This document shows, in pieces, positions 15,001 to 30,922 of a stretch of DNA of 32,000 nucleotides. The DNA lies in assembly GCA_025839675.1 (NCBI GenBank), contig CP104013.1, positions 5,790,001 to 5,822,000 of the forward strand, read 5' to 3'. This DNA is from Candidatus Lokiarchaeum ossiferum. GTDB taxonomy: Archaea; Asgardarchaeota; Lokiarchaeia; Sigyniarchaeales; Promethearchaeaceae. The notes below the pieces were generated by a model. It searched no databases. It was not told the DNA's origin and saw only the letters and a list, made by a program, of their open reading frames with translations. A program made the position numbers and the translations under genes. The stretch's first letter is position 1. Every line of letters starts with the position of its first letter.

Positions 15001-18000
15001 TCAAGCTCTATGATGAAGTCCGAGTAGACGAATTTGGGACAATGCATAATGAAACCACGTTACTCCAACAACGCAAGCTCACCACTTTAGTTTATCCCGC
15101 CGTCTGGAATCAATCAAGTACTCGAACGGTTGTGGGTCCTCCGAGTGTCACCGAAGGAGGACGATTTACCATTGGAACTCCTGAAGCCCAAGTCTTGAAT
15201 TTAGCGATGGATGTCACCGATCCCGAAATGGCCCATACTGCCATTCTTGAGTATAATTTAGCGGCCAGTGATCGGGATCTTGTGATCACCCGCTGGTCAG
15301 AACGATTCTATGATCGAGGATATTCGGCGAGTGATCCCGCTTCGATCGATACAGTGCAAAAAGTATGGCCTGTGGAAAGCATATCCTATTATGATCAATC
15401 CACCATCTTAACCCATGATTGGATCACGAAAAAAGTAAGTGAGAATTATAATCCCGATATCCTTCGGGATGTCTCCAATTCGGAATTGCAATCGATTAAG
15501 ATTGACGCCAATGATGGACTGAATCCTGTGTGGAATCAAGAAGTCGAGATTCATTTTGATAGCCATTATGTCATAGCCAATCAAGTCGATACGGTGGCTT
15601 TAACCTATCGGTTCGGTCTTAAAAATTACTTTGCTTTAGGGGCCCTTGGATTTCCCGCGCGCGTGGATCTCCAAATCCAAAAAGCGGATGCATCATGGAG
15701 TACGATCGCTTCCATCGAGGATTTAAATGTCCCCTTTGAACAGGATATTGCTTGGGTGGACGGAGTGTTTACCATTTCTGAAACCGAACTGGCCACATTT
15801 ACGGAAATTGGAGGATCAATGCTTTTGGATCTCAACGATCTACGGTTTGTGTTTGACGGGTGTGGGGTACGGGGAGCAGAATTATTTATTGATCAGTTGG
15901 TCCTTACCTTGGATAATGATAAAACGCGCCTCTTTTGGGACGATGAACATATTCATGCGTACAGTGATCTGGCGGCCTTGACCCATAGTTCAGATCCGGT
16001 CGTGATCACTCAAAGTGATAATCCACAAGCCGGGCAATCGGCCAATGTGTATACGATAGTGGATAATCGCACCCAAATTCCCGAAGTAGTAGGCTATGGT
16101 GATACGGAACTATTGTTGATGAATGTGGGTAACTGGAAAAACACCTCTTGGTGGGGAGACTCTCATTATGCAGGAGCTGATGCATGGAATTCGTGGGAAT
16201 ATCTTGTGAATGAAATGGATATTTATTCGGTGGAGGGTTCCCTTGCCGAAACCGACCAACTCCACTTGGATATTACGCCCTTTTACACGGATCCGGTTAC
16301 CCGCACCCCCGAGTTTGCGTGGATGGAACTTCCTCTCTATGTATTTACCACCCAAGGGATTGACGAAATGACATTAACGTATTCATTCTCCAATGCGGCT
16401 GACGAAAGCATAACCTACAATATGACGGAATTAGTGGGTGAGAGTGGATTGTTCATGGAAACTCTCCGTCTTCAACTGCAAGGACGTTGTTTAACGGAAG
16501 TCACATGGGATTTCACTTTCCATTCTTGGGTGAGCGCAGCCGACATCTCCACAGTCGGGTTAGGGGGGATTGCCTTTTATACCGAAGCGTCTTTGGGCAA
16601 GTTAGTGTTAACAACGGATACTTTGACGCATACGCACGATTTACTCCCCACAGTCTTTACAGGGCCCACCTCCCCCTATGGGGAATATGTGAATTTGTCC
16701 TCCCTGGGTGTCTTTACCTCCTTGGATCGCATCCAGATCCAAAGTGCCCAAGGCGTCAGCGATGTCTTACACAATGGATATTATGGAAGTCCTCTCTATC
16801 TCAGTTCCTTTACGGTGGTTAGTTATAATACCACATCACTGGCCGATGTCGCCTATCATTATGCCTATAATTTTGATCCGGTGCAAAGGAATTTTGAATA
16901 TCGCATGGTCGATTGGATGGAAGCGACTCCCACTCCTGAGTCATGGGAAGGAAGCAGTATGACCACCGAAGAAATTCCGTGGTTACGTCATCAAAGCTGG
17001 GATCTCGATGGGGATGCTTCTTATGATCTCTATGTGGAAGAATTTGACGGCGAAGGGCTCGGGGAGTTCTCCAATAACAAGTTAGATAATTTTCGGGTGG
17101 ATTATACGGGCGATGGATACTATGATCTTCAAGTGACCATGGATACGACCTTGACCACTTCTCAAGTAACGACACCCACCCTTTATAATATGGAGACAAA
17201 TTTGATTGGTGAAGCCACCGGGCATTATTATGTCATGCAAAATGCCAAGGAATTCATCGAAATTTCTGAGGATACCGATGGCGATGGACGCTTTGATCTG
17301 AAATCCGAATTTTCCCTCACCGCTTCTACCATGGCCTTACCCGAATATCGAGAATATGTGATCCATAACCATCAACTCACTTCCTTTAGTGATGCCACGT
17401 GGCACAAACCGATTGCGGGGGTGGCCTATAGTGTCGATAGTGATGGGGATGGGGTGTTTGAAGAAAGTATATCCCGTACCGATCGCTGGGCGAACTCCGA
17501 ATCTATTTTGGACGAAGCCTATGAACATTGGATCTATGAATCCTATACCTATACCTATGAGGATTTTGTGGAACGGGATAACATGCTCAAGGAAAATCTT
17601 ACCTTTACCCTCTGTGGGCCCGATTATTTCAATCTCACCGAAGACGGGTTATTGCAATTTGATTCTGATGGCGAAGTGTTGTATGATCGTCCCAGTCTCA
17701 CGGCCGAAGTGATTCTGGAATATGATGTGCCTGTTCCTATTGATCCCCGGTATAATCGTACGGTGGATCGTTCTTCGTGGGAGATCGATCGGTACCCCGA
17801 ATTACTCTGCGATCCCCATGGGGTGCTTGCATGGTGGGATGGTGATCATGATGGCACTGCAGAAACCGCTTTTGTGTTTACGGAACAATCGTGGGCCGAG
17901 GATCAAATGGCAATTGCCATTTATTATAGTCGGGATGGATCGGAGCAGGTGCATATTAATAGTTTTGAGTATCAAGCCTCGGGTGATTCGCTCCTACCTT

Positions 18001-21000
18001 TGTACTGGCTGAGTGCGGCGTACGATTATGAAATTCTGACCAACATTGCGTGGGAAGATTCCAAGGATGCGTATTGGACACAAATGAAAGGCTTTATCGA
18101 TGGGCAAGGTAACAGCATGACGGCCTCTTACTATTTAGATCTGGTGCATTCAATGTCCTTGATGGGCACCTCCGCCCTTATGGGGGGTGGGTTCGGATTT
18201 ATTATGGCAGGGTATGCAGTCTACCAATATTGGACTCGTCCGTTGTTGGTCGACTTTCTTGCCGAACATCAATTATGGGGAATGCAAGAACAACCCCATG
18301 AATTTGGGCAAGAAGCGGATCGCTATGATTTCTGGGATGGGTTGGATGCGATGATCGAGGATTTCACCAATTTTGGGAATTTCCAAGATCCTCAATACTA
18401 TGTGCAATCCTTCCCAATAATTACATCCAATCCTTGGTGGGATGATACAGTGTGGCGAGAAGCGGCTGAACCGACCTTTGATACCAGTAATACAGTGGTG
18501 TCCTTCAAAGTGCCCGATATGCAAATCAGTGGGGATACGCACGAAGGCATCATTGCTTGGTGGCTCCATTGGTATGAAAACGACTGGGTGGAAAATGATC
18601 CTGTGATTCCCTATGCGAATGCGCCCCAATGGTTATGTGATTTTATCACCACCTACCTTCAATATGTGCAAACTTCTTCCGATATGGATCGACCTCCCTC
18701 GAGTTATGTGAAAACACTCTATCCTGATATCACTATTCCCCAAGCCGATTTCAATGGCGAATTGGGGCAGGGGCTCTATGCCAATGTGTGGCGAGATCTT
18801 GGGGAAGTTGAATATCAACTCCTAGAAGGCAATCAACGGGGAGTTATTGCCACCACCTTGACCACCCATCATCCCGTCTATACCGATGTGATTTTCTCCG
18901 TGGATGCTTCGGGGCGACCTCTCTTTACACCCGCTGCGACTGTGTCCCGCAATTTGAGTGATCCGATTGCTCGGACCCTCGATTATATGGAACTCGCCTA
19001 CTATGCCCAATATGCGGGTGCCTATGAAGACGCCCGTGCAAAGGATCCCACGATCATTGCGTCACAACTTGGATTACAGGTGGTGCAAGTCGTGGCCGGC
19101 GTTTTGGCTTCGAATTTGGCTGTGATGAGTTTAGATCCTGTTGGATTCTATACGAATTATGTGGTCCGGGAAGGGTTGCCTGGCATCTTGCTGGATTTAA
19201 GTCGGGAAGTGTTCGAAGAATTGGTCTTAGAAGAACTAGTCAGTTCTGCGGCCCGATCCGTGGGGATTTCTTTGGGATTGGCGAACTTGTTAGGGGAATC
19301 CTTCGGGAGTTTTGATGTCATTTCCAACATCTACAGTACAGTGGGATCTGTCGATTACAGTGATCTCTATACGGCCTTACAAACGACTACCCCGCATTCG
19401 ACCACCCAACACGCTTCTTTAAGCGAACATGTGGCAGTCTCGAGTTTTCAACACCTCTCACAGGTGAAACAAGTGGCCCAATTGAAGAGTCTCTTACAAG
19501 CTCGATCCAGTATCCATGCGCTGATCCAATTACGAACGAATGCGCGAATGATGGGAGCTTTACAGACCTTTATTAGTACCCACATGGGTTCCAATATTCA
19601 GTTGAAGCCATACCTTAGGAATCTCGAAACTATGCCAATTCTGAAGTTTACCAATCACCATTTGACCGAGGAAGCGTTCCGTTTGGAGGTTGAGGAGACT
19701 ATTTGGGAATATTCGATCGCTGGGAAGTCGGTGCAAGAATTTCTCTCGGATCCCGCTTTATTGGCCAAATGGGGGTTGACGGAATGTGGAAATGAGATGT
19801 TCTTCCAGACTGTTTTGAAAGATTTTGGATCTGTGCAATATAAAGCAGATGGTCTAGTGTATGAAGAAATCGATGGAGTATGGAGATCTCGAATGAAATA
19901 TCCTGATGAAACCTTGGGAAGTTTTCTCTCTCGAGTGGATGGTGTGGTGTTGATTGATCCTCCCCATCAGAGTAATTTAGATAAATTTATAGAAAAGGAA
20001 TCAAGTAAGGAGATTGGAGATTCTGCGGAGTTAGATCCCGAAATTGTTTTCAAGGCGTTAGTAGAATCTAAAGATCAAGAACTAACGAAATCCACTTTGG
20101 AAACAGCTACTTTCTTGATTAAGAAAAAGCAATCTTTGAAATTAGATACTGCTTTTAAAACACCTCAACAGCTAGCAAATTTGCGGACTTATAAACCAAA
20201 ATCAGATAAATCACTCTATCCTATGAAAGTCTTTAAAGAAACTCATGTTCCTACAGAAGGAGATTTTCTGCATCGGGGTGATTCTTCCTTAAAAGAAATG
20301 ATTCCAATTCAGATAGAATCGATTAATAGATTTAGGAAATACCTAAATTACATGAAAACTTCGATGTTCCGTACATTAGTTAAGCAGAAGCTAAATAACT
20401 ACGAGGCTCATTTGAATTCGCTATACTCAAAACTAGAAGTAATCGATTCAACTAATCCAACAATTGTCGATGACCATTTCCGAATATCCGAAGATCTTCT
20501 GAAGATCTTTAACACATATCTTGGATCCAACACCTATATGGTCCTTCCTGCATATGCACGTATGAAGATTTCTGGATCATTGAAAGATTTGTATAAATGT
20601 TATTGGCAAATCAATATTTTGAAGAAAGGAACTATGTTTTATGAAAATTGTCGAAAGCAAGGAAAAGGGTTTTCTTTGCTCATTGGACCAGTTTCGGGAT
20701 ATAATGAATATAACATTTGGGTAAACCCTACTTCAAACCCTTTAGAACGATATCTCTTCAAAATTACCCCAAGAGGGGGCCATCATGAAGCAGCAACGGT
20801 TCTTTCATTCATAAAAACGAAATCTTTGGGTATGCCGGAAATAATCTCTCGTTCTAGTTTTTCTCCTCAAGATTCAGTAATTGATTGTCAAACGGATGCA
20901 TTTTCAATGATCTTAGGAGACACTGAATTAAATCGTTTATTGAATCATTTGAATATTGAACTCATCAAATCTGATTCTTCAGGCTCTCTTAAACCTGATT

Positions 21001-21893
21001 TTTATGTACGTACTCAAGCGGGTGAAAATTTTATTGGAGATGCTTTAGATGCTAGTAATACCGAAGATTTGCTCAAATACTCGGTCTCCTTAGAAGGAAG
21101 TTTGTTAGGCGGAATGGCTGAATTTGGGATCTCAACTTCCACTGCGATGCAGATGGCCTTTTATCGAGATTTGAACATCATTGGAACCATCGTTCCTAAC
21201 ATTTTGCGTGAAAATTTGGAGATTTTAAATTATATCCATAAGTATGAGACTGGTAATCCGTCGCAATCCTATGAGCAAACTATTAAGGATTTGTTTAAAA
21301 ATGCCGAGTCTTGGATTCCCACTATCCTGCCCGAGTATGATTCGGAAGGGCGGTTTGAGGGATTGGATATAATGTCATCTGAGATGAAGCGTTTGAAAGC
21401 AATCGAAATACAGCAAGAATGGGGGGTGACTCTTGAAGGAATCGAAGGAGTTATCAAACCCTTCGAATATGAGTCACCAGATCTTTATTATGGGAATTTG
21501 AGGACAACAATTTCTGTTGTGAAAGATATGCGGCTTTTCTGGTTCATGGTACGCAATCCGAGTGCATCATACCAAAATATCATAGATTATTATGTCACAA
21601 TCGCAACTGACTTATATGCTGATGCTGATATCGATTCTTTCCATGGAGATACTTTTAAAGATTATTTACAAACATTATCCGATGGTCGAATAAATAATTT
21701 TCCAGCACAATTGGCTCAATTTCCTCAAATGGGAATTGTTCATTTATGTCTGGACCATTGGCTTAGTCAAGGCGGATTTAATCTCAAATTGAAAAATGAA
21801 AATGTTGATAAGATCAACGATATAATCAGGAAATTGAATGAAATTTTGATTGCAAATGGATACAATCTGCTTCCTTTCAAAGCTAAAAAGTAA
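3..21893 (+). CDS. Giant (>7,296 aa; 5' end cut by window edge) acidic multidomain cell-surface/adhesin-like protein with C-terminal membrane segment(s) and a long tail
   Basis: There is no stop codon for 21.86 kb. The frame is also open from nt 3: SQSPEDKYY precedes the GTG at nt 30 used by the ORF track, so the true start lies upstream of the window. All alternative-frame ORFs inside it are <=128 aa. The protein is D/E/T/S/Y-rich and K/R-poor with many N-x-S/T sequons. Extracellular domain types are listed as sub-features. Confidence 0.9.
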   Translation, partial: SQSPEDKYYVELDSAMLFGEYEQQMETFTFTFTVNGYSQAWTYRLYVDNDNPEITFGFDPSVSVSSDSIETSLDEIPVVSLSQPINLIQDQTQISLDISHNNTADLAYLEYYGLFYHRESDADGWLDYNAISYDRGVDGFNWIQDISNGLLFAIDKMIANGITWSTLPSLSGSDYHYLQYVTEWNVNGLSNTYFNEEMTSAQTDFASNLSLLLSYLTTDQLSSAYDLMLRTIKPHLTELATNEYDVPWETPEKVVFGTYFSDDLATYTPTINLEGFPDGYFQLGTSITDHVGLRDESVSPLYFLENNLPTFQIVSPADNEQLVILPDQCNYVNFSMYVPDRDIRSIALTNMVMFDDLVTEDLTFDMGQDLPNHRVDFGFNLSEAISNTIVNTYVLNPQCAWTITTEDFAGRIYTQTRTFTCVQIPDHIGPQFLNYTVPDASALWTEGCDIVLNITDFGNPVFDVNMTYVGDDVASGIRYLEVWLSEIPQNLDPRQIYFPIMDFETTGDSSMLDNFLGFIITSESDGTYIFNPAKMNKFWAKYDGDGQYTFIVRAFDQNFNAELITVDLNIVQPRLNLPANTPVPTIGSDEWLNLTLSNLGDQVVSVEMLLYTDITASFLAPWSLSDYEEATENLIDHPTDPDALPAWNSLRIHTTIPYLDLPDLNKNLPAAKGYKMDSTCNPSTWSSNVYSYTRVLAYEPLTMGEILTFSAWIYVSEDFNGDWARISCEGVISGTSYYNLAKKGTWQKVELTVTASSTGEGHGFFYFSKNGITDFSTLTGYVIYLAPQVEKKAYATPFADGSRLPMRSQILYNSTSQTEYQFSFAGITEETYYVNYQIIQTDGSVISRLHQVSYPDHVVEELQIPNHLLTSDNTWYDPYGLVIDNHFPHDANCNFTEGDLWSEMETVMITWLGETPTTTSPCEVYLRFNGMEYPLVNKSYTVDWITRSAIFTLDTYELPEGSQIVEATVVFSNGYQTSVSRVIIVDNTAPVFIQDGIYINGTSQYALNDWVQYKTIMYCNNVVELEIHAQDSESNITAIDLWVEHQGNLVGSLLSYPFNSPSVMEALLYDTTSLGDGEVYDLCIKISSAGGSITSDTIQLFIDRSAPVGEFLTPATTTTFGGDTITLDVLATSNSPIQQVAFYFQTGVGGFSTTDFLGYATLQYDWTTDQYLYRLDFADVVQYQGQTNYFWLEITDEAGNMAQIPTSTPCTILPQYISLTEVEAVYYMDRDENAVLTGSLENFYEDYANAIINVTLNIQNGGMFVPIGSDVITIDSTTGNSVNIEWGGNLPLEFTDLENLRIPISYVSLDGSITSCAIDTTNIAVCGKFNATDSHQVAFITCGTDRRIHLFSHDPTTVFEWSRFDDIDTYADLPAKHVEVVDFDGDGYDELLLLTADRLIVASFNRTTQDWEYREFEFSQWAADFSQPVEGVSMGTNSTHLFLGSSSPLFTDRILVMESLPTGDFSLEQVIYAPEGESITAFSSLPLGDSEDLTIVTLHGIYSHKEDHWTEIFTSEYTLVPKLEVGNLDLDSSNELLFGVYGYQGIDVIQGNWNLNTQSWEFIAAQAYSDIAQIYDLAIGHVNMDNRGRAIIATDAGVDMIDVLDDPTVTAVEDISTSQDMEGYYTQNGLYEYTDLGALDDTTITEIRGELSYTSMGGTLENIYSPDRVKLDDGLHLESGSIADIRAIDNEVLEIRSDHHDETSQLGIEFYFDELDLSQETTYTLQWQFEDGGSLGWLKIKEIKIYDLYDVERVSITGTSGFWGDEVAETGLYDIASSIGKIEVLIDNGNFAMPYIFEIDLISLTLPDLKMSGPQGYTSEQLSTDTWELGSELTHWKLDGNAVDALGSYSGTVLGASPTVDRFNCPNSALNFDGVNDYITVQNVAGTCISDPSITGEISLSMWAYIEGGLYMVSSGGQTSSRGIAISYQNGNEFILLHDGNQQWIVYPDWPLNQWIHIGFTWNGFTLDYYQNGVLTLSDTTPTSASFSDLHTELTLGVPNSVKTAYHFDGKLDDLRFYDTVLSRSEMQQLSQGPFVIEGVNSENPNPLISLATLTTSGDVTQIARILQPNTAGYSPAGDLQALTVNQVTSDTLGYDANGYITQSFFADTPVTTTSLLSRLGDYPNNALVQTGNSMYAIAGSTFDFYSALPATLHISRHGTPGYGYGSIMNYYIYYYSDNNLLRSVNVDCYSEGYGSGVAIFAFNVDLKEGYVNGEGCNKIGVGVKFLYTDYGTLSVKCIPNLENEADPSNYPIEWNNCYNKVPFEADITINRGELGDIEDVLNYRLTIPIEIDMYGRTFAGTITDLNYNPAVLSAQNILIHTSIDGGNTWNAYSGANIVQQSTLAYNIELSLTPSSLSIFFSPEGSVLMRVSFLLEFTHPSQFVYDGYALIPTLRIDASQIEAELLSRISSSLECDQTGFEILEIPIDRSPILENEFDIFHPPSNFDATYSTRVLLDLTCPDLIYTAYSAPLEGDIQVRSLESDSNTVRLDHFEGSTSATHTSGILYTTSGEEIVGSKSIILPSAGSYAKYDYNVEFTYEGTAECYFRPSTVPMDNTLYAIMTSDSSGYPGLMVYMYNGKIQAGHYTDVGNVGKFCGWTYSDPVLNENEIYHIAYSWKDGDGAYLYINGNLVGSNPDDGDPANFFLDCWGTSTHVGIGQCGYRSSVGAALGTYDEYRFSNLARTDFPTTIYTEKTYDALEALYNDDQVEKLPIRISVEDISSSAPTEASEITLALQYDEGDVIMNNNAYIDLDSETHPFPNGVIPEDIALTITTKSSNFASYLSSERTYRISYSFWSETEGVWHLLCALPASTLDFSLKAGSVPTTETTITYGETGHDQYYEQTFGVALPIAQCENAKYLQLEIDGEVDHFLWDTGNWYEYNAFDTADHGLTYNQWISDNNGKTHLQIHHPTNGWTNLESWNWTTYLDGRFALTYALIDGWGTFDQSLNDEYYQFAFRFIIDQGAYPQANHHMEVNIRKISGMIVHTRDPNDVESREKAYEMYDGRHLFSITLGDTTFDPSALDAVSISVDMGVIINITTVPGGVKLPILDEKLVWRQLAAEFFLESQITTAQGEHLLKNLFGSPTITAQVIDDDLIYTVSQTLTLYSRNQIAEFLHFEEGVGYSLRGRLVSHFSLLNNRLGSIRVSVQATDDFISAAKVVYERISEQVSPNQVHDLTLGDLDDDGDQDLLFDDGSAIIVQPNEATFALKLSAFNNDSLDPYLDQYFLGSMDLGAPHPNFYGQTQELPEFGTSMTLHVVDYSYDLTSIALYCDDVLVETQSVTQGSNYFSFTVDTLSPLIGEGNHVMKVIATDSQSQTGEANLMVIIDRSAPSTTLQMLGDWQDLEVSLRTNLTLDVVESNTLISTEMLFTSVTDVPICAFTFAQEDLKSISLLEDVILPSGFDHGAFKIRFWSVDQAGNSEIPTEYAFTISSTYDLTFYTDETYLEEETTLSRHEGEVLFGQVLDRFGEPLPEGFPLDLKFEGLNYIQTSIQGNFGHFSGQIQSSNLLTDDLRTDFALANNGGLEEELVTSDTVEFTLAGENRYFAVDGLRRFYYGSANPLTLIYDQVDLSDYSSLYSFEGIHVEVIIPSAYHDDMGTTYETIEIEFRELAHFENDTDIVTTYTVPFETLLAAVKTSNPTPWQDMMVSRIGIDIGFYNLVARNSLFNLSAIDQIRIIGHDNGIHPDFSLEDPSNSDQLLGCAGIYLLDHLNQATMFYETNPSGVESVTYALTAQCNMGVVGNTITTYAYPLTIQPKPFMLTVTSTVNTTMTFGDLYTLEGIEWDTGFNPTTTEIIDDFCLLQAIYEGDSYPTPIGTPMDLGIASEMTFLINALPGEYTDLHLNYSGNALYPSTLSGELLSDLTVTKKPTHIELANSVLSMERNSSSSLFGLVLTTDRYPLLPDTDVSVTQTLLREFAEGTRGDYYWGNYTFENVLLGLLNESGEYDWMEMAFLQEGEVFVFDVDLAEDGNLEGMTPGLYSMAVKFEGNALYDATVQPFLLQVNPSALDIEIREGFAQNWTAMANGYASYLQYSDEKVFSMKVSDAFDADPCAGYPLWYQVGFTPNSPNFPLMCVSDNYADTWGDYMEFQTSETPDILKFWQYIQAKDDRPIAYPYYDEAMDQIMFMAPFAYGMVTTDAEGLAEVVLDPQMTTEIAELYKAIFKVTLGSLDEINLYFRVFYDASFSPDQMKMPDLVSLGYTYPIEYFGKEALVYEGDDILPTASISNGFWTGTNYQDPYHCGSWGEGILTMLAEDTMIVAGYQEFNEPNFNLAAAVVEADLIAEGTYLPEVHGESNFIESTGLPTDNWMELGLEIWNQANSSQVLAYPWAEMVDDLGISTFTCNENTLGSAIDRLLPGFYTANYAYERGSSIYYNAPHAGSTSLLLKGVNSARLDSPTHHQTLSELIGPETVSTTSLTTAEGETILGEFDTNYPTLTGELSLDALNEIPDNYNYTDLITVDFLWNGWRVGGEYSYNLSEYTEAIPFEVPFKFQDGYPVNFSVEVAFDYNPEANLNWSAEMTAAGYEIWSEYYLSMAYNATLENCWANYAPISDYAIILTELSVKQSTLYDSGNEWDLMAELLTKYPQVSYDGYNLNQNPGAGWKYLNGSIQDDIPQVSLKIGEDNVEEYVSATIDQSAITISLDKDQISGWTPDHSEEYNVTLSFPELFSVERYQWNMSYDVDDPQFEKHSRFTQLTGMVLGENVNKSLRTAIYTNSTYDGTEATQDATYIGLQVGETMSLVVPDVYMPWRGELQWQALCPQLPWLDYTSLEWELVLTVHQSADPTNIHTLSWILNTSDFSKVDGGFWQDLSTFIPSAFYSCDVNLELNITLHSSGDVTAIYPLYLIHGYLVGQEDIVTISTVYPSALRARMFGSSFLYLYTLFGKDMGITATSNDDQGNTLENINDMYLEVLPYTGDAYGVQSITDILSVKDERRFLEYPSVSEANMDYWFTTASGTPNYATYQEFVAEDSLGQTMFAMRYNESQLDAIEDPRIYSGFVKLYDEVRVDEFGTMHNETTLLQQRKLTTLVYPAVWNQSSTRTVVGPPSVTEGGRFTIGTPEAQVLNLAMDVTDPEMAHTAILEYNLAASDRDLVITRWSERFYDRGYSASDPASIDTVQKVWPVESISYYDQSTILTHDWITKKVSENYNPDILRDVSNSELQSIKIDANDGLNPVWNQEVEIHFDSHYVIANQVDTVALTYRFGLKNYFALGALGFPARVDLQIQKADASWSTIASIEDLNVPFEQDIAWVDGVFTISETELATFTEIGGSMLLDLNDLRFVFDGCGVRGAELFIDQLVLTLDNDKTRLFWDDEHIHAYSDLAALTHSSDPVVITQSDNPQAGQSANVYTIVDNRTQIPEVVGYGDTELLLMNVGNWKNTSWWGDSHYAGADAWNSWEYLVNEMDIYSVEGSLAETDQLHLDITPFYTDPVTRTPEFAWMELPLYVFTTQGIDEMTLTYSFSNAADESITYNMTELVGESGLFMETLRLQLQGRCLTEVTWDFTFHSWVSAADISTVGLGGIAFYTEASLGKLVLTTDTLTHTHDLLPTVFTGPTSPYGEYVNLSSLGVFTSLDRIQIQSAQGVSDVLHNGYYGSPLYLSSFTVVSYNTTSLADVAYHYAYNFDPVQRNFEYRMVDWMEATPTPESWEGSSMTTEEIPWLRHQSWDLDGDASYDLYVEEFDGEGLGEFSNNKLDNFRVDYTGDGYYDLQVTMDTTLTTSQVTTPTLYNMETNLIGEATGHYYVMQNAKEFIEISEDTDGDGRFDLKSEFSLTASTMALPEYREYVIHNHQLTSFSDATWHKPIAGVAYSVDSDGDGVFEESISRTDRWANSESILDEAYEHWIYESYTYTYEDFVERDNMLKENLTFTLCGPDYFNLTEDGLLQFDSDGEVLYDRPSLTAEVILEYDVPVPIDPRYNRTVDRSSWEIDRYPELLCDPHGVLAWWDGDHDGTAETAFVFTEQSWAEDQMAIAIYYSRDGSEQVHINSFEYQASGDSLLPLYWLSAAYDYEILTNIAWEDSKDAYWTQMKGFIDGQGNSMTASYYLDLVHSMSLMGTSALMGGGFGFIMAGYAVYQYWTRPLLVDFLAEHQLWGMQEQPHEFGQEADRYDFWDGLDAMIEDFTNFGNFQDPQYYVQSFPIITSNPWWDDTVWREAAEPTFDTSNTVVSFKVPDMQISGDTHEGIIAWWLHWYENDWVENDPVIPYANAPQWLCDFITTYLQYVQTSSDMDRPPSSYVKTLYPDITIPQADFNGELGQGLYANVWRDLGEVEYQLLEGNQRGVIATTLTTHHPVYTDVIFSVDASGRPLFTPAATVSRNLSDPIARTLDYMELAYYAQYAGAYEDARAKDPTIIASQLGLQVVQVVAGVLASNLAVMSLDPVGFYTNYVVREGLPGILLDLSREVFEELVLEELVSSAARSVGISLGLANLLGESFGSFDVISNIYSTVGSVDYSDLYTALQTTTPHSTTQHASLSEHVAVSSFQHLSQVKQVAQLKSLLQARSSIHALIQLRTNARMMGALQTFISTHMGSNIQLKPYLRNLETMPILKFTNHHLTEEAFRLEVEETIWEYSIAGKSVQEFLSDPALLAKWGLTECGNEMFFQTVLKDFGSVQYKADGLVYEEIDGVWRSRMKYPDETLGSFLSRVDGVVLIDPPHQSNLDKFIEKESSKEIGDSAELDPEIVFKALVESKDQELTKSTLETATFLIKKKQSLKLDTAFKTPQQLANLRTYKPKSDKSLYPMKVFKETHVPTEGDFLHRGDSSLKEMIPIQIESINRFRKYLNYMKTSMFRTLVKQKLNNYEAHLNSLYSKLEVIDSTNPTIVDDHFRISEDLLKIFNTYLGSNTYMVLPAYARMKISGSLKDLYKCYWQINILKKGTMFYENCRKQGKGFSLLIGPVSGYNEYNIWVNPTSNPLERYLFKITPRGGHHEAATVLSFIKTKSLGMPEIISRSSFSPQDSVIDCQTDAFSMILGDTELNRLLNHLNIELIKSDSSGSLKPDFYVRTQAGENFIGDALDASNTEDLLKYSVSLEGSLLGGMAEFGISTSTAMQMAFYRDLNIIGTIVPNILRENLEILNYIHKYETGNPSQSYEQTIKDLFKNAESWIPTILPEYDSEGRFEGLDIMSSEMKRLKAIEIQQEWGVTLEGIEGVIKPFEYESPDLYYGNLRTTISVVKDMRLFWFMVRNPSASYQNIIDYYVTIATDLYADADIDSFHGDTFKDYLQTLSDGRINNFPAQLAQFPQMGIVHLCLDHWLSQGGFNLKLKNENVDKINDIIRKLNEILIANGYNLLPFKAKK
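2016..2411 (+). other. Domain in giant ORF: jelly-roll, galactose-binding-like/CBM_4_9-like module
   Basis: Segment KGYKMDSTCNPSTWSS...LTFSAWIYVSEDFNGDWARISCEG...GTWQKVELTVTASSTGEGHGFFYF...GYVIYLAPQVEKKAYATPFADGSR. The beta-strand pattern and the terminal 'Q-V-E-x-x-x-Y-A-T-P-F' resemble CBM/tail-fibre-type jelly rolls. Assignment is by eye only. Confidence 0.35.
2760..3640 (+). other. Domains in giant ORF: three tandem Ig-like modules
   Basis: Roughly 90-120-aa beta-rich units are delimited by VDNTAPV (2958-2972) and IDRSAPV (3309-3323). The third unit carries ITDEAGN (DEAGN at 3588-3602). D-x-[ST]-A-P boundaries and D-x-A-G-N are typical of prokaryotic Ig-like surface modules. Confidence 0.5.
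3940..4820 (+). other. Domain in giant ORF: FG-GAP/VCBS-type (integrin-alpha-like) beta-propeller
   Basis: Blade-like repeats of roughly 60 aa are present. They include HVEVVDFDGDGYDELLLL (DFDGDGYDE at 4146-4172), VGNLDLDSSNELLFG (4574-4618) and IGHVNMDNRGRAIIATD (4738-4790). This is the D-x-D/N-x-D-G-x-x-[DE]-hydrophobic signature of FG-GAP repeats. Confidence 0.55.
5502..6096 (+). other. Domain in giant ORF: LamG / Laminin_G_3 (concanavalin A-like lectin) domain 1
   Basis: THWKLDGNAVDALGSYSGTVLGASPT...NSALNFDGVNDYITV...ISLSMWAY...NQWIHIGFTWNGFTLDYYQNGVL...LTLGV...HFDGKLDDLRFYDTVLSRSEMQQL. The motifs occur in the canonical Laminin_G_3 order: W-x-[FL]-D-G entry, F-D-G-x-x-D-Y-[IV], W-x-H-[IV]-x-x-[TV], Y-x-[ND]-G, and G-x-[IL]-D-[DE]-[LV]-R-[IF]-Y-x-x-x-L-S-x-x-E. 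Confidence 0.8.
7464..8060 (+). other. Domain in giant ORF: LamG-like domain 2 (more divergent)
   Basis: VRLDHFEGSTSATHTSG...GTAECYFRPS...NEIYHIAYSWKDGDGAYLYINGNLVGS...HVGIG...ALGTYDEYRFSNLARTDF follows the same strand and motif order as domain 1, ending in the D-E-Y-R-F-S box. Confidence 0.6.
9531..10300 (+). other. Domains in giant ORF: isolated FG-GAP-type motif followed by two Ig-like modules
   Basis: LTLGDLDDDGDQDLLFDDGSAIIV lies at 9531-9602. It is followed by LHVVDYSYDLTSIALYCDDVLV...HVMKVIATDSQSQTGEANLMVIIDRSAPS (DRSAP at 9984-9998) and ...FKIRFWSVDQAGNSE (DQAGN at 10248-10262). Confidence 0.45.
11529..12038 (+). other. Domains in giant ORF: Ig-like repeat ends (Big_3_5-like 'Y-x-G-N-x-L-Y' strands)
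   Basis: LNYSGNALYPSTLSGELLSDLTVTKKPTHIEL lies at 11529-11624 and MAVKFEGNALYDATVQPFLLQVNPSALDIEI at 11946-12038. Both match the [YF]-x-G-[DN]-x-x-[YF]-x-x-[ST]...V-x-x-x-x-[ST/A]-x-[IL] terminal pattern of 'Ig-like domain repeat' proteins. Confidence 0.4.
17001..17879 (+). other. Domain in giant ORF: membrane-proximal cluster of five DxDGDG-type (FG-GAP / calcium-binding) repeats
   Basis: The five repeats are WDLDGDASYDLYV (from 17001), VDYTGDGYYDLQV (~17098), EDTDGDGRFDLKS (~17271), VDSDGDGVFEES (~17433) and WWDGDHDGTAETAFVF (17832-17879). They are spaced roughly 30-130 aa apart. Confidence 0.6.
18150..18233 (+). other. Predicted transmembrane segment 1 of giant ORF
   Basis: SMSLMGTSALMGGGFGFIMAGYAVYQYW contains a ~22-aa uncharged Gly/Ala/Met/Phe-rich core followed by W-T-R. 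It is the first clearly hydrophobic stretch after ~6,040 visible residues. Confidence 0.6.
19050..19133 (+). other. Possible second hydrophobic/membrane-associated segment of giant ORF
   Basis: TIIASQLGLQVVQVVAGVLASNLAVMSL, preceded by ARAKD. It is only moderately hydrophobic because it contains Q, N and S, so it may be a TM helix, a re-entrant segment or a buried helix. Confidence 0.35.
19950..21890 (+). other. Compositionally distinct C-terminal module of giant ORF (AT-rich, Lys-rich, no recognisable domain)
   Basis: My hand GC counts of single 60-nt lines are: 19021-19080 52%, 19741-19800 48%, 19861-19920 38%, 19981-20040 37%, 20101-20160 25%, 20581-20640 23%, 21361-21420 35%. The protein switches from D/T/G/P-rich to K/I/N/L-rich sequence (e.g. 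LIKKKQSLKLDTAFKTPQQLANLRTYKPKSDKSLYPMKVFKE). Confidence 0.6.
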
Positions 21894-21926
21894 TCTAAAT
21901 GATTTAGAAATCTAAGGCACCAAACA

Positions 21927-21948
21927 TTTTTTATCTCGAATTTTTTTT
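21927..21948 (+). terminator. Oligo-T tracts after the giant ORF (archaeal-type intrinsic termination signal)
   Basis: A T6 tract (21927-21932) and a T8 tract (21941-21948) lie 34-55 nt after the TAA at 21891-21893. Confidence 0.35.
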
Positions 21949-21979
21949 ATAATATTAAGAATTCCACCAGATTTTGGAG
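21944..21979 (+). promoter_or_regulatory. Putative TATA-like box plus Shine-Dalgarno-like GGAG for the LRR gene
   Basis: TTTATAATATT (~21946-21956) lies about 35-40 nt upstream of the ATG at 21989. GGAG at 21976-21979 leaves a 9-nt spacer before the ATG. Confidence 0.3.
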
Positions 21980-21988
21980 CAATAAATT

Positions 21989-23818
21989 ATGAAAACTCTT
22001 AAACCTACTGTAAAAAAAGTTAACTCCTCAATTTTTTCCTATTATCAAGAAAAGTTGGTGTACTTAGCTGAGTATACTGCCCTAAAGGCAATAGAGCCCT
22101 ATCTTGCTCAATTTAAATCTGGAGAAAAACAAATATATTTTGTGAATAAACATGTTTCCACCCTCTACTTATCAGATGCGCTGCCTCCCGATCTTTTTCC
22201 CGAAATTGGTTTCTTCACTCATCTTACAACAATTCATTTTAGAAATCTTGATTCACTTACATGTTTCACGCACCTTTCCCCAACTTTAGAATGGTTACAT
22301 ATCGAATCCAAACATTTGCTCTCTTTTGAGGGGTTTCCTTCTCACTTAGACAAGCTTCAAGTCTTGTTGATTAAGTGTCCTAGCTTACACACCTTAGAAG
22401 GACTTCCCTCTATCTTGGATTCCCTTCAGTCTTTATCTATCTCTTGCAAAAGATTAAAATCTTTAAAAGGATTGCCGGAATCATCCCCTTCCCTTAGAAA
22501 TCTTGGAATTTGGGATACACCTATTGAGTCATTGGGTACCTACTTTCAACAAAGTTTTTTGTTAGAAGGAATTGGTTTAGAAAATGTTCCCATTAACAAT
22601 CTTCATAAGTTACCTTGTGAGTTGAATCATTTAGAAAAATTGGATTTGACTAATTGTGCTTTCCCGAACTTGGAAGGATTACCCCTTTCTTTACCCCGGT
22701 TAGAAAAAATGTACATTGGGATTGCATCTGATCGAGGAAACTATGAACACCCAACTGATGGTTATGATCTTATTCCATTTCACTCTGTGCAAGGTTTTCC
22801 CCAAGAAACCCCTTTGCTTGAAGAGTTATCCATCATTGGAACTGCCCTTACTTCATTAAAAGGGCTTACCCTCGCATTACCCAGACTAAATCATTTGATC
22901 ATCTCTTATAACCCCCTCCTCGTATCCATGCAAGGATTACCTAATGAGCTTCCAAATATGGAGTGGTTTGATATGGATAACAATGGCTTGCGCGATTTTC
23001 AATTTTTTCCTCGATTACCGGGAGCTCTGGAGTACCTTTCGTTCAAAAATAATCCTTTTCAATCTCTTCTAGGCATGTCGGAACATGTTTTAATAGAAAA
23101 ACACAGAAAATCTGAAATTGATCGAGTTTTTCGGCTTCCTCTTGAGTTCTCCAGGTTTGAATTAATTACTTTACATACCTCTTCCTTTGCCGCTTTAGTA
23201 GCAAATATTGCACGTTTTGATCTGATGGATGCTGAATTTGTCGGTAAGCAAAAATTTCCTCGATGTGCTGTGTCGCTCAATCTCACCCCAAAGGGATTTT
23301 TTCTTCTCAAGAAAGTGTGGGATTTTCATTGTATGAATTACGAAGCGATTTATGACGAGACCGCCTCCATGGATTACGAAATTGCTACCCTAAAAGTTCC
23401 ACGGGAGTGCACTCCTGAATCCTTCATGTTTTTTAAAACATTTCCCTCGCTATTCCTACCTCCTGATTATCAAATCTATTTTGATCAATGTGATGCCCAT
23501 CGGAAAAAGTGTGGCTGCGCAATGACTCGGTGGGATTTTGATGACCCCGCTTATTTCGCCGAAGCATCCGTGATTATCCTTTTAAAAGACGAAACTGGCG
23601 AAAATGATCAAATTTTTCTTCATGAAGCCTTCATGCGAGAATTGTATGCCTATTACCAGCTCTCGCCGATGGAATTAGCTCAAAAATATGTGGTAGAACA
23701 TTATCTGTCCGATGATGAGCGAGAGCGCCTGCTCTATGAGAAAAATACTGCGGTCATCAGATATTTGCTGCGTGAATTACCTGAGACAGACCCCATATTA
23801 GTGAAAATTCTGGAATAA
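21989..23818 (+). CDS. Cytoplasmic leucine-rich-repeat (LRR) protein with unassigned ~245-aa C-terminal domain
   Basis: 609-aa ORF starting at ATG with an upstream GGAG. I see no signal peptide or TM segment. It has an LRR solenoid (next feature). The C-terminal part (aa ~363-609, nt ~23075-23815) has no motif I recognise. Confidence 0.85.
   Translation: MKTLKPTVKKVNSSIFSYYQEKLVYLAEYTALKAIEPYLAQFKSGEKQIYFVNKHVSTLYLSDALPPDLFPEIGFFTHLTTIHFRNLDSLTCFTHLSPTLEWLHIESKHLLSFEGFPSHLDKLQVLLIKCPSLHTLEGLPSILDSLQSLSISCKRLKSLKGLPESSPSLRNLGIWDTPIESLGTYFQQSFLLEGIGLENVPINNLHKLPCELNHLEKLDLTNCAFPNLEGLPLSLPRLEKMYIGIASDRGNYEHPTDGYDLIPFHSVQGFPQETPLLEELSIIGTALTSLKGLTLALPRLNHLIISYNPLLVSMQGLPNELPNMEWFDMDNNGLRDFQFFPRLPGALEYLSFKNNPFQSLLGMSEHVLIEKHRKSEIDRVFRLPLEFSRFELITLHTSSFAALVANIARFDLMDAEFVGKQKFPRCAVSLNLTPKGFFLLKKVWDFHCMNYEAIYDETASMDYEIATLKVPRECTPESFMFFKTFPSLFLPPDYQIYFDQCDAHRKKCGCAMTRWDFDDPAYFAEASVIILLKDETGENDQIFLHEAFMRELYAYYQLSPMELAQKYVVEHYLSDDERERLLYEKNTAVIRYLLRELPETDPILVKILE
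22196..23074 (+). repeat. About 12 tandem 23-aa LRR units (69-nt period) inside the LRR gene
   Basis: The unit consensus is [LF]P..L..L..L.I....L.SL.G. Examples are FPSHLDKLQVLLIKCPSLHTLEG, LPSILDSLQSLSISCKRLKSLKG, LPCELNHLEKLDLTNCAFPNLEG and LPNELPNMEWFDMDNNGLRDFQF. Unit 8 carries a ~16-aa insertion (SDRGNYEHPTDGYDLI). Confidence 0.8.
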
Positions 23819-23870: not shown

Positions 23871-26354
23871 ATGTTGAAAAATAAGTTTCATGAATTGATC
23901 AAGAATAAGCCTCTTACATTTTTAGCGGGAGCAGGATGTTCAGTTGATAATCCTTCAAATCTCCCCGCAGGTAGTACAATGATAAGAAAAATTATTAGAT
24001 TTACTTGTGCTCTTGAAGAAACAAATAAGTTACTTTCTCTGAAGGATTTACGTTTTGAACAACTAATGGATATATTACGAGAACAACTAGATCCTGAATT
24101 ACATATAATAGATTATTTTTCTCTAAATAAATCTCCAAATTTACAACATTTTTTTCTTGCCCAGATGATAAAACTAGGTCATATTGTTATGACTACAAAT
24201 TTTGATTGTCTAATTGAGCAAGCATTATTAGAAAGTGATATTCCAAAAGAAAAATGTAGAGCAATCATCACTCGTAAAGATTTTAAACGATATTCAAATC
24301 CATCTCTATTATTTCAGCAAGGATTTTTTGGAGTTTATAAAATTCATGGTTCCGCTCTAAATCAATTTACTAAGAAATCTACGCGTGAATCCCTAGTTGC
24401 AACAATCCAAGCTTTTGGACAAAATAAAGAAGAAAGATCCGTTTTTCAAGTAGAAAAATTCAAAAAAGAATTTTTTACTCATGTTGATGATAACAGGACA
24501 CTCGTTGTAATGGGTTATTCAGGATATGATGATTTTGATATTGTTCCCACTTTAAAATTATTAAAAGATTTTAATGCAATCATTTGGATTGAATATCAGA
24601 AACATGATAATGGACAAGAAATAATTGAAAATATCCAAGATATAGTTCCATCCCCCGAGGATAAAATAGGAAAAATTTTATACGAAATTAAGCAAATTGG
24701 TGAAATAAAAGAAATTTACAGGATAAGAGCAAATACATCTCGATTAATTACTGAATTTTTTGAAAATAAGAAAAAACCGAGAGTAAAACAATATGAAATA
24801 CAAAATTTAGATGAATGGATGGAATCTGAACTGCCGAAACCAAAAAAATTCAAAAACTACTCGATTCCGTTTGATATCTATAATAAATTACTATTTCAAG
24901 AAGATGCCCTAAGATGCGGAGAAAAAATCTTAGAAATTGCAAATAAATCCCAAAATTTAGAGCTGAAAGCAACTACATTCAATAATGTTGGGTTAATTTT
25001 TCTTAATCAAGGAAAATATGATGAAGCTTTGAAATATTTTACAAATTCTTTGAATTTCTGTAATAAATTGAGTAGTCATAAAGGAAAAGCAGCAAGGTTA
25101 AACAATATAGGTCTAGTCTATAAAATGTGTGGAAATATAGACAAAGCATTGGAATATTATAAGGATGCATTTGAAATTGATATAAAGATCGGGGATATTA
25201 AGGGAAAATCAAATAGATTAAATAATATCGGACAAATTTTAGAGATCCAAGGTGAAATAGATGAAGCAATTAGTCACTATAGAAAATCGCTAGAAATTGA
25301 TAATGAAATGGGCGATCTTCATCAAAAATCCATTAAACTAAACAATATTGGTGAATTATTGTTCAAATGTGGAAAATGGGATGAAGCCTTAGAATATAAT
25401 CATGAAGCTTTTGAAATTGCAGAAAAATTAGCTGATTTAAGAGGTGTTGCTCGTTATTTAAATAATAAGGCGAATATTTTGCTTAATAAAGGTATTTTAG
25501 AGGATTCTTTTCAATATTATCAAAAATCTTTGAATATTGCTGAAAAAATTGGGGATATTCGTTTAAAATCAAAAATATTAATGAACTTAGGAGATTATTC
25601 AGAAAAGAAAGGAAATTATGTAATTTCGGAGAAATATTACAAAAAATCATTAGATGTTGTTGATAAATTAAAAGATCCACACTTAACCGCATCAATACTA
25701 ATAAAAATGGGTGAATTGCTAAAAAATAGGGGTATTTTTGACAAATCTTTAGCCATTTTTAAAGAAGCTTGGAATAAAATTGAAAAATCAATAAATATAG
25801 AATTAAAATTTTCTTTATTATATCAGATTGGAGATGTTTTGCATTATCAGAAAGAATTAGATATGGCACTTCAATATTTTCAAAATTCTTTGAAATTTTC
25901 AAATAAAATGAAGAATAGGTCACATTCCGCTTCAGTATATAACAATATTGGCTTAATTTATTATAAAAAAAAAAAAGATTCTGATTCTCTTAAGTATTAT
26001 AATAAAGCATTAAAAATATCAAAGGAAATAGGAAATATTAGATTACAATCAAGTGTCTTAAATAATTTTGGCACATTCTATTCCGCTAAAGGGAATTATA
26101 AGGAAGCATTTATTCATTTTCAACAAGCTCTATTAATTGATGAGAAATTAGACCAACCAAAATCAAAAGCAGAATTGCTTAACAACATGGGAATAGTTCT
26201 TTTTCGATTGGGAAAAAAAGTGGAATCTCTGGTGAACTTAAAAAATGCTCTAGATACATTAAATAATGGCAATCTTGAAAATATTGGATTAGCAAATACA
26301 ATAAAAAAAAATATCAACAATATTTTGAAGAATAATCAACCTTTCTCGAACTAA
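23871..26354 (+). CDS. SIR2-like (SIR2_2 / NADase-type) domain fused to an 11-unit TPR solenoid
   Basis: 827-aa ORF. The N-terminal part carries the SIR2_2 motif series and the C-terminal part is a regular TPR array (sub-features below). I see no P-loop (GxxxxGK[ST]), TM segment or signal peptide. Confidence 0.9.
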   Translation: MLKNKFHELIKNKPLTFLAGAGCSVDNPSNLPAGSTMIRKIIRFTCALEETNKLLSLKDLRFEQLMDILREQLDPELHIIDYFSLNKSPNLQHFFLAQMIKLGHIVMTTNFDCLIEQALLESDIPKEKCRAIITRKDFKRYSNPSLLFQQGFFGVYKIHGSALNQFTKKSTRESLVATIQAFGQNKEERSVFQVEKFKKEFFTHVDDNRTLVVMGYSGYDDFDIVPTLKLLKDFNAIIWIEYQKHDNGQEIIENIQDIVPSPEDKIGKILYEIKQIGEIKEIYRIRANTSRLITEFFENKKKPRVKQYEIQNLDEWMESELPKPKKFKNYSIPFDIYNKLLFQEDALRCGEKILEIANKSQNLELKATTFNNVGLIFLNQGKYDEALKYFTNSLNFCNKLSSHKGKAARLNNIGLVYKMCGNIDKALEYYKDAFEIDIKIGDIKGKSNRLNNIGQILEIQGEIDEAISHYRKSLEIDNEMGDLHQKSIKLNNIGELLFKCGKWDEALEYNHEAFEIAEKLADLRGVARYLNNKANILLNKGILEDSFQYYQKSLNIAEKIGDIRLKSKILMNLGDYSEKKGNYVISEKYYKKSLDVVDKLKDPHLTASILIKMGELLKNRGIFDKSLAIFKEAWNKIEKSINIELKFSLLYQIGDVLHYQKELDMALQYFQNSLKFSNKMKNRSHSASVYNNIGLIYYKKKKDSDSLKYYNKALKISKEIGNIRLQSSVLNNFGTFYSAKGNYKEAFIHFQQALLIDEKLDQPKSKAELLNNMGIVLFRLGKKVESLVNLKNALDTLNNGNLENIGLANTIKKNINNILKNNQPFSN
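23907..24605 (+). other. SIR2_2-type domain with putative catalytic Asn110 and His159
   Basis: The motifs occur in canonical order. They are LTFLAGAGCSVDNPSNLPAGS (GAGCS at 23928-23942), VMTTNFDCLIEQAL (Asn110 codon 24198-24200), VYKIHGS (His159 codon 24345-24347) and LVVMGYSGYDDFDI. The same motif set occurs in ThsA, DSR-type and other defence-associated SIR2 domains. Confidence 0.75.
24969..26288 (+). repeat. Eleven TPR-like (TPR_12/LGN-type) units in exact 40-aa / 120-nt register
   Basis: The hallmark dipeptide falls at aa 371, 411, 451, 491, 531, 571, 611, 651, 691, 731 and 771. At most of these positions it is NN (NNVGLIF, NNIGLVY, NNIGQIL, NNIGELL, NNKANIL, MNLGDYS, IKMGELL, YQIGDVL, NNIGLIY, NNFGTFY, NNMGIVL). 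No indel occurs across the 11 units. Confidence 0.85.
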
Positions 26355-26557
26355 ACATGATTTTGCATACAATATTGAAGAAAAAAATTCTCATTTCACC
26401 TTCATCACCAATTACTATTGCCAAATGGGGTTTAAAATATCAACAAAGTCTATAGTTTTGAAGGTGAAGTCGATTTCAAGGTTGCTCCATATTATTATAT
26501 TTTTTTGAAGTTGGAAAAGGTAGCTACTTCCTATCTTTTTATCTAGTTCATTTTTTT

Positions 26558-27673: not shown

Positions 27674-27886
27674 TCGTGCAATGGCAATTTCTTATCTATT
27701 TCTTCAATTTTTTTGATCATTTTTTATAAAAAAGGAAAGTAGGATTATCAACTTCCCTATCTGAAATGTTTTTGCAATACTTGGTGGCTTTCATGAGCTA
27801 TCGATTTTAAAATCATCTAAAAATCAAAAATGTAAGTGCTTCTTTATTCAAAAAACGACGTGTTGGGATAGGATAAGTTACCTATG

Positions 27887-27895
27887 TTTAAAAAA
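27887..27895 (+). promoter_or_regulatory. Putative TATA-like box for the UPF0284 gene
   Basis: TTTAAAAAA is centred about 26 nt upstream of the ATG at 27917, a spacing consistent with a leaderless archaeal transcript. Confidence 0.3.
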
Positions 27896-27916
27896 TGATG
27901 ATGCTTTTGACAAATT

Positions 27917-29005: not shown

Positions 29006-29046
29006 AATCCCTTCAGATTTCAGGTAAATTAATGAACCCTTTTTTT
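29003..29046 (+). terminator. Hairpin plus T7 tract between convergent genes
   Basis: TGAAATC (29003-29009) pairs with GATTTCA (29016-29022) across a 6-nt loop. A T7 tract at 29040-29046 lies just before the stop codon (29051-29053) of the convergent gene. Confidence 0.4.
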
Positions 29047-29050
29047 AACG

Positions 29051-30454: not shown

Positions 30455-30922
30455 CTTTTATCAATTTATTCTAATCATTTCTAGTAATTAAACAAAAATG
30501 TTTGAGAAAGAGAGAGAAAAAAAGGAGAAAAAAGGAAATTAATGATTATTCCCTGTCCATATGAGATAGATAACTGCTCATCCATTTGGAATTCGTCTTA
30601 AACGGAGAAATTATTACAATTTGGTTTAAATCAAATATGAAATGGTAGAAATATGGGTGTTTTTTCCTTTAGAAATATCTAAGTTTTGTTCTTTTTTTTT
30701 TCCCAATTCTTTAACCTTCTTTTCCTTCTATTGTCTATTTCTTCACTGATTGAGTCTTAGGGAATAGATATTTATCACGGAAAGCTATACGATTTTTAAT
30801 TAACCTCTCATTATGTCTGATCAAATGGGAGAAGAAAAGAAAAAAGTTAATTATAGGTTGAAAAACTGTGCCTATCGCATGGATACAGTGAGAACTGCCT
30901 CACAAACCTCCGTTAGAATTCA

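Follow-up and report, generated by a model that had tools for sequence, protein, structure and literature searches.

The giant gene at the center of this study, in the Asgard archaeon Candidatus Lokiarchaeum ossiferum, ends in a long C-terminal tail that shares no detectable similarity with the tails of its four homologs. We analyzed a window of 32,000 nucleotides (contig CP104013.1, positions 5,790,001 to 5,822,000 of the forward strand; coordinates below are those of the window unless a locus is named) in which the gene forms a single giant open reading frame (ORF). The locus comprises a conserved scaffold, a conserved junction, non-homologous tails among the homologs, and a linked leucine-rich repeat (LRR) gene that co-varies with the tail, all within a strain-variable island. 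An initial annotation, made from the letters of the sequence alone, had noticed an abrupt intragenic switch of composition near 19.8 kb; overall GC content, a changepoint in the GC content of third codon positions (GC3), permutations of codon order and a test controlled for amino-acid composition (z=7.3) all agree that the switch is present.

Conserved module, junction and non-homologous tails

A protein search with the region just upstream of the tail recovered two relatives, P0001 (1558 aa, locus L001) and P0002 (1427 aa, locus L002). Scanning species-representative genomes added two paralogs, L003 and L004, both in one metagenome-assembled genome (MAG) of Promethearchaeum sp., and a metagenome search with a degenerate DNA pattern for D[VI]xVPIDPRYN added L006, a fragment of 1.6 kb that shares 55% identity with the conserved module and ends before the tail. 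An earlier metagenome scan found no relatives, viral contigs yielded none, and a profile search with the five-member alignment returned no further members. We define the family as five members (the window, P0001/L001, P0002/L002, L003 and L004), the fragment L006 and a remnant, P0003, at locus L005.

The module that defines this family (Table 1) is 61% identical between the window and P0001 and 31-38% identical to P0002, L003 and L004. It has no match in Pfam, NCBIfam, PADLOC, PHROGs or PDB sequences, and an AlphaFold2 model built from a 3-sequence alignment was unusable (predicted local distance difference test score, pLDDT, 29). The window and P0001 align with 61% identity over 956 aa, ending at ...LSRVDGV(V/A)(L/F)IDPP (aa 6645 of the window), and past this point there is no alignment. 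Conservation, for which an end near 19.8-20.0 kb had been anticipated, ends at nt 19,964. The x-IDP junction is present in five of the five members (IDP motif at aa 6642-6645 in the window), followed by tails of 642 (window), 587, >747, 789 and 1028 aa. Comparison of the tails in all 10 pairs by BLASTP, phmmer --max and Smith-Waterman alignment with shuffles detected no similarity (best pair p~0.015, uncorrected).

The same boundary is sharp in the DNA. Nucleotide identity between the window and L001 is ~50-75% along the body of the gene (62% for the body as a whole), reaches ~90% in the junction block, and is lost abruptly after ATTGATCCTCC. By the Nei-Gojobori method (NG86), synonymous divergence (dS) between the two is 2.8 (saturated) in the body and 0.43 in the junction. 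We considered an RNA structure or Rfam family as the cause of the low junction dS and rejected it (fold z=+0.69, no Rfam match).

Two of the homologous loci have features of their own. In L002 a frameshift within a (TA)4 run interrupts the gene at the junction (L002 6520-6570, Logan contig of SRR14865926); because the junction motif runs on in the other frame, upstream of the ATG of the downstream ORF, the split is secondary, and it could be a real pseudogene or split gene or else a sequencing or assembly slip. P0001 is encoded by a complete 1558-aa gene (L001 10001-14677) that consists of module and tail alone, with no giant N-terminal region and with divergent genes upstream; either module plus tail can exist without the giant ectodomain, or P0001 is a truncated relic.

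The tail of the window, hereafter tail A, had no relative among 5.8 billion proteins, and an exhaustive HMMER search of 1.84 billion representative proteins returned P0003 (119 aa, locus L005) as its only relative, which is 62% identical to tail residues 524-639; between the two genomes tail A is 61-65% identical, with 61% over 118 aa. P0003 is a 3' remnant of a tail whose upstream frame is closed by stops, and L005 comes from the same sample as L001. For this tail-A fragment the nonsynonymous divergence (dN) is 0.27 and dN/dS is 0.24, compared with 0.35 and 0.12 for the body; tail A is under purifying selection and evolves at an ordinary rate. Since the tails do not evolve unusually fast, their mutual non-homology is best explained by replacement.

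The initial annotation recognized no domain in the tip, and tail A indeed has no match in Pfam, NCBIfam, PADLOC, PHROGs or PDB sequences. The only PHROGs match of any tail, tail D, was non-significant (E=0.089). The motifs HExxH, GxSxG, Walker A and CxxC are absent from the tails, except for one GxSxG in the tail of L002, and a single-sequence AlphaFold2 model of tail A was unusable (pLDDT 35). Within tail A, GC3 climbs from ~0.27 to 0.40-0.45 near nt 21057 (21057-21600 region) and then falls to 0.18 over the last 80 codons. Given these internal changes tail A may itself be composite; the L005 remnant spans only its last 118 codons.

Two codon-usage regimes within one reading frame

No in-frame stop lies upstream of the giant ORF within the window, and a gene call on an identical public contig gives a full product of 9702 aa, so the window lacks ~2415 N-terminal codons. 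In a Pfam scan of all 7287 aa only Laminin_G_3 and Big_7 were matched; the body is acidic, with a net charge of -10 per 100 aa, and poor in lysine (K 1.6%), and, judged by this composition and these domains, presumably forms an ectodomain. Contigs assembled independently from runs SRR22273278, SRR32148622 and SRR32148623 agree with the window at every position (100% identity) from nt 11,989 on, through the break. These three contigs exclude an assembly join at the break, against which the initial annotation had cautioned.

In 300-nt windows, GC falls from 0.46-0.52 at 18.9-19.8 kb to 0.32-0.38 at 19.8-21.0 kb. The maximum-likelihood GC3 changepoint lies at codon 6594 (nt 19809; 0.479 to 0.312, log-likelihood ratio 28), and the largest GC3 step of the giant gene between adjacent 150-codon windows lies at nt 19818, where the delta of 0.28 exceeds the maximum of 0.26 among 300 codon-order permutations. 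With the codon preferences of the body, the GC3 expected for the tail is 0.457 and that observed is 0.287 (Cochran-Mantel-Haenszel p~3e-13), so the profile does not become smooth once amino-acid composition is controlled. Despite its unrelated tail, L001 has a GC3 drop at the same position (from 0.54 to 0.26), and there are drops in L002 (from 0.36 to 0.23) and, less pronounced, in L003 and L004.

Two details of the switch as first described need correction. The GC content of 23-25% given for 20101-20640 fits only the three lowest of the nine 60-nt lines in that interval, which range from 0.23 to 0.42 with a mean near 0.33. The change from acidic D/T/G/P-rich to K/I/N-rich protein holds for its second half, with K rising from 1.7 to 7.9%, I from 4.9 to 8.3% and N from 3.6 to 6.1% between body and tail, but D and T are only modestly lower in the tail and G and P are nearly unchanged.

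The GC3 changepoint (19809-19818) falls at the 5' edge of the junction block, which means that the low-GC3 unit is junction plus tail, and the step in composition comes ~150 nt before homology ends, where the coding sequence is still conserved. If the junction is a homology arm carried along with a tail cassette, a low-GC3 unit of junction plus tail is what would be expected.

The relative synonymous codon usage (RSCU) of junction plus tail correlates with that of the downstream window genes (r=0.79) and equally with that of the genes flanking L001 (0.79), in agreement with the earlier remark that the new composition is like that of the downstream genes. RSCU of the body correlates at only 0.21-0.30 with those host-type genes, but at 0.81-0.86 with the L001 body. 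The tail is host-like in its codons and the body is the anomalous part, which reverses the picture of a foreign-looking tail. The difference is restricted to 4-fold families, in which the body favors GCC, GGG, CCC, ACC and GTG (window 8430-19766; L001 10001-12760); in 2-fold families (D, E, N, Q, Y) A/T-ending codons are used alike in body and tail. As the body bias is common to the window and L001 although synonymous sites are saturated, it must be actively maintained in both lineages. The GC and GC3 step would accordingly reflect two regimes, an unusual maintained codon bias in the body and ordinary host codons in junction and tail.

Two other causes were considered and rejected. Horizontal transfer from a GC-rich donor or GC-biased gene conversion would shift the 2-fold families too, yet these are identical. 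Avoidance of oligo-T terminators does not account for the body bias; T5+ runs do show some depletion, but codons ending in A are underrepresented too. The coding strand has no T5+ run from 14399 to 20858. A further block of host-like codons with low GC3 (0.27-0.35) lies inside the giant gene at nt 5430-8316, over Laminin_G_3 domains, and the GC3 step at its 3' edge (nt 8316) ranks second in size within the gene; this block may be another inserted module.

The LRR partner gene and the strain-variable island

In four of the four loci that extend that far, the next gene after the tail encodes an LRR protein; these partners have no signal peptide and no transmembrane segment. The LRR gene after the tail-A remnant in L005, which carries an in-frame stop, is 59% identical to the window LRR (79.6% at the nucleotide level over 960 nt). 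The window LRR has no BLASTP match to that of L001, where the tail is unrelated, and aligns with those of L003 and L004 only in short repeat-level matches (27-37%). Judged by these comparisons, the downstream LRR gene varies together with the tail, as the initial annotation had envisaged for the tip and its neighbor.

The LRR partners of the window, L003 and L004 have in common a ~60-aa C-terminal motif, YY..SP.ELAQ.Y...P..L..EE..RL.WE...LP..DPIL (window 23650-23818; L003 12199-14232; L004 5611-6642), which belongs to no Pfam family and is absent from the L001 partner. In L003, two LRR-plus-motif units are fused in tandem to form the partner. Between the LRR genes of the window and L005, the N-terminal ~200 codons (window 22004-22600 versus L005 10482-11200) are 29-45% identical in amino acids (dN 0.64-0.95) and the rest 63-84%; this could mean a diversifying LRR surface or decay of the L005 copy with its in-frame stop. 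The T6 and T8 runs in the spacer between giant gene and LRR gene resemble an archaeal oligo-T terminator, which would suggest that the LRR gene has its own transcript.

Further downstream, a SIR2_2-TPR protein (TPR, tetratricopeptide repeat) is encoded, and TPR proteins are also found downstream of the LRR gene in L003 and L004. The SIR2_2-TPR protein has weak PADLOC matches to SIR2 defense proteins and its gene is very low in GC (24-30%). The gene at 26558-27673 encodes a protein with four transmembrane segments and a faint SLATT_4 match (E=0.017). One or both of these could be a third component or an unrelated defense gene.

The sister genome GCA_041410205.1 (CP163304.1, locus L011) matches the window at 95% identity over 26434-30546 (99% in CobT) and has none of the giant, LRR and SIR2-TPR genes; in CP163304.1 the cobalamin-biosynthesis cluster directly adjoins the ortholog of gene 26558-27673. 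The absence of the three genes from this near-identical strain means that an island of ~35 kb is strain-variable. At L005 the tail-A remnant stands beside the same cobalamin cluster (80.6% identical to L011), and from this syntenic position it is probably the decayed ortholog of the locus and less likely a displaced cassette. The match to the sister strain breaks off once more at 30546 (L011 12631 onward); beyond it, a NosD/beta-helix gene lies on the minus strand of the window where the sister strain carries flavodoxin genes, a second strain-variable spot.

Table 1. Features of the giant-gene locus in window coordinates (aa, amino acids or amino-acid position in the window ORF).
Feature	Coordinates	Strand	Remarks
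Giant ORF	30..21893	+	7287 codons in window
Giant-gene body	30..19766	+	5' end cut by window; Big_7 and Laminin_G_3 domains
Family-defining conserved module	17130..19766	+	aa 5701-6579
Hydrophobic Gly-rich segment H1	18153..18227	+	aa ~6042-6066; conserved in family; weak transmembrane or re-entrant candidate
Hydrophobic segment H2	19053..19127	+	aa 6342-6366, IIASQLGLQVVQVVAGVLASNLAV; strongest transmembrane candidate, conserved in all members
Junction block	19767..19964	+	aa 6580-6645, ...WGLTECGNEMFFQTVLKDFGSVQYKADGLVYEEIDGVWRSRMKYPDETLGSFLSRVDGVVLIDPP; 198 nt
Variable C-terminal tail A	19965..21893	+	642 aa plus stop; host-like codons, K 7.9%
95-nt spacer, giant gene to LRR gene	21894..21988	+	T6 (21927) and T8 (21941) runs
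LRR partner NEF87_004917 (strain B-35)	21989..23818	+	609 aa
SIR2_2-TPR protein	23871..26354	+	827 aa; last gene of strain-specific island
Right island boundary	26425..26434	.	homology to CP163304.1 begins here

Known systems and alternative explanations

Polymorphic toxin systems such as CdiA-CT/CdiI and Rhs-CT/RhsI (PMC3482391) offer the nearest bacterial parallel. As in those systems, a conserved scaffold is part of a very large surface-type protein, the C-terminal modules that follow a short conserved junction are unrelated among homologs, a co-varying gene lies immediately downstream (for which an immunity role of the LRR protein is putative here) and the locus has a position in a strain-variable island. 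LRR proteins are a recognized immunity class (Imm-LRR) in polymorphic toxin systems, and archaea are described as having few such toxin and recognition systems (Zhang et al. 2012, PMC3482391). Unlike them, our locus lacks TPS, FHA, VENN, RHS/YD, PAAR and LXG domains as well as any known family of toxins or immunity proteins; its tails and partners are 3-5 times the usual size, there are no downstream orphan cassettes, a constant C-terminal motif marks the partner, the locus belongs to an Asgard archaeon, and export of the tail is putative. The initial annotation had pointed to proteins of the Rhs/CdiA type, and no Rhs, CdiA or VENN features appear in the 7287 aa scanned. The giant protein differs from CdiA/CdiB in the absence of TPS and FHA matches in Pfam and in a junction that reads IDP, not VENN. 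The archaeal host has no outer membrane. Rhs/YD toxins differ as well, in that the window has no RHS_repeat match and its junction contains a D-P pair but not the Rhs PxxxxDPxGL motif.

The only comparable archaeal module that we found is VARTIG of the Thermococcales, a large Ig-domain surface protein (arCOG07710) with a C-terminal region that is hypervariable by recombination and variable genes downstream; its authors describe a polymorphic-toxin-like organization of unknown function with no counterpart outside Thermococcales (Makarova et al. 2021, PMC8416519). Both are archaeal loci with a large surface protein, a variable C-terminus and varying downstream genes. In VARTIG, however, the variable part is an Ig domain, whereas the tails described here have 590-1030 aa and no Ig or other Pfam match, the partner is consistently an LRR protein and the lineage is Lokiarchaeia. 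The locus is not a member of CdiA, Rhs or VARTIG, whose defining domains are absent from the scanned sequence.

Asgard archaea have giant genes (>3000 aa), those of Aloposon among them, some of which sit on elements that are mobile or vary between strains (Wu et al. 2022, PMC8813620), and the locus is like them in combining a giant gene with a strain-variable element. For Aloposon, that article describes giant genes in tandem, integration at a tRNA site and four conserved genes upstream, one of which encodes a MinD/ParA ATPase; these features are not seen in the covered part of our locus, whose upstream side lies outside the window. A term search of the consulted text found no mention of a junction, swappable tail or LRR partner. 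In the literature searched we found no paper describing this locus. What appears to be new, by comparison with these systems, is a polymorphic-toxin-like modular architecture in an Asgard archaeon, whose parts are unannotated and which combines large tails with LRR partners.

By analogy with polymorphic toxin-immunity cassettes, we give an even chance to the reading that the tail is a swappable effector or recognition module with a specific LRR binder. The giant gene would then be modular, with a ~950-aa module (aa 5701-6645, including two hydrophobic segments and the IDP junction) followed by a replaceable tail of ~640 aa. Tails would be exchanged by recombination at the junction as a tail-plus-LRR cassette, each tail being inherited together with the next gene, which would encode a cytosolic LRR protein. 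The tail would be the variable 'business end', an effector or recognition module, and the cognate LRR protein would bind it specifically, as an immunity, neutralizing or chaperone partner. The suggestion of a recombining C-terminal cassette holds up in its architecture, with five unrelated tails and a co-varying neighbor; the toxin part of that suggestion is an analogy only, as no tail has a recognizable toxin or other domain.

Several observations weigh against a swappable toxin-like tail. The family is very small, with one fragment and one remnant beside its five members, near-identical strains with the same body and different tails were not found, the junction is not specially conserved between the paralogs L003 and L004 of one MAG, and neither extra junction copies nor orphan tails occur downstream in the window or in loci L001-L004. 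The five tails have no significant match in Pfam, NCBIfam, PHROGs or PDB sequences. Tails of 590-1030 aa and LRR partners of 336-677 aa are far above typical toxin/immunity pairs, and an immunity protein does not need the constant C-terminal motif. Finally, composition changes at H2 in all members, from a net charge of -10 to -12 per 100 aa and K of 1.6-3.3% before H2 to a net charge of -0.3 to -5.4 and K of 4.8-7.9% after it, tails included, like cytosolic neighbors. This switch hints at an N-out/C-in topology with a cytoplasmic tail, a misfit with a delivered toxin.

The main rival, which we consider somewhat unlikely, is built on this topology, with a variable cytoplasmic tail and an LRR adaptor. 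The acidic N-terminal region would lie outside, H2 would be a single pass, and a conserved ~280-aa juxtamembrane segment and the tail would be cytoplasmic; the tail would act as a signaling or scaffolding module, with the variable LRR part of the adaptor binding it and the constant C-terminal motif binding a common downstream component. Such a receptor-like arrangement agrees with the charge and lysine switch across H2, with the lack of a signal peptide or transmembrane segment in the LRR partners, with their constant motif and with the recurrence of TPR proteins downstream. However, the flanks of H2 have slightly more K/R before than after it, leaving the C-in topology without support from the positive-inside rule, H1 may be a second pass that places the tail outside, and two codon regimes could explain the difference in composition equally well. 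Signaling domains are also normally conserved, whereas full non-homologous replacement with a co-varying partner typifies conflict and recognition systems.

That a weakly constrained C-terminus simply drifted beyond recognition to an AT-rich composition, beside an LRR gene that is a mere conserved neighbor, is improbable. The gradual decay of L003-L004 identity toward the end of the module (0.72 to 0.38) would suit ordinary divergence, as would the absence of recognizable domains from the tails and the low AlphaFold confidence. Yet the window and L001 pass from 90% nucleotide identity to unalignable sequence within a few bases, and tail A, 61-65% identical between two genomes with dN/dS 0.24, changes at about the rate of the body. 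At a GC content of 32-37%, frames of 590-1030 codons stay open; the tails differ in length by as much as 440 aa, and LRR similarity follows tail identity. Fusion by stop-codon loss, raised in the initial annotation, would have joined a formerly independent downstream gene to the giant gene recently, in L. ossiferum. Body and tail are separate ORFs in L002 and the tail is composed like neighboring genes, but the fused state and the same junction motif occur in the window, P0001, L003 and L004, the L002 split is the secondary (TA)4 frameshift inside the junction, and the composition step precedes the end of homology within conserved coding sequence, leaving such a fusion very improbable. For an assembly chimera of two unrelated sequences joined at ~19.8 kb there is the abruptness of the change and nothing else; with three sequencing runs in full agreement across the junction, a continuous reading frame and the same junction joined to other tails in other genomes, it can be practically dismissed.

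We propose, more tentatively than the swappable tail itself and with considerable doubt, that the locus is a polymorphic-toxin-like Asgard surface system assembled entirely from unannotated parts, in which giant proteins anchored in the membrane would bear exchangeable, non-homologous C-terminal modules of 600-1000 aa, each with its own co-varying LRR protein, and in which tail-LRR pairs would be allele-like units of contact-dependent antagonism or of self/non-self recognition between Lokiarchaeia cells or syntrophic partners. If true, it would be the first such surface system in the archaeal lineage closest to eukaryotes, with an LRR recognition scaffold and no bacterial-derived components. 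The locus also provides a new junction motif (...IDP), conserved in the family, and ~1,600 aa of sequence that is specific to the family and has no known fold, together with a clear natural case of two codon-usage regimes kept within one ORF. As its host is a cultured Asgard archaeon, the locus is open to experiment, and if the LRR partners prove to be specific binders of the variable tails, it would be an archaeal case of LRR-based specific recognition.

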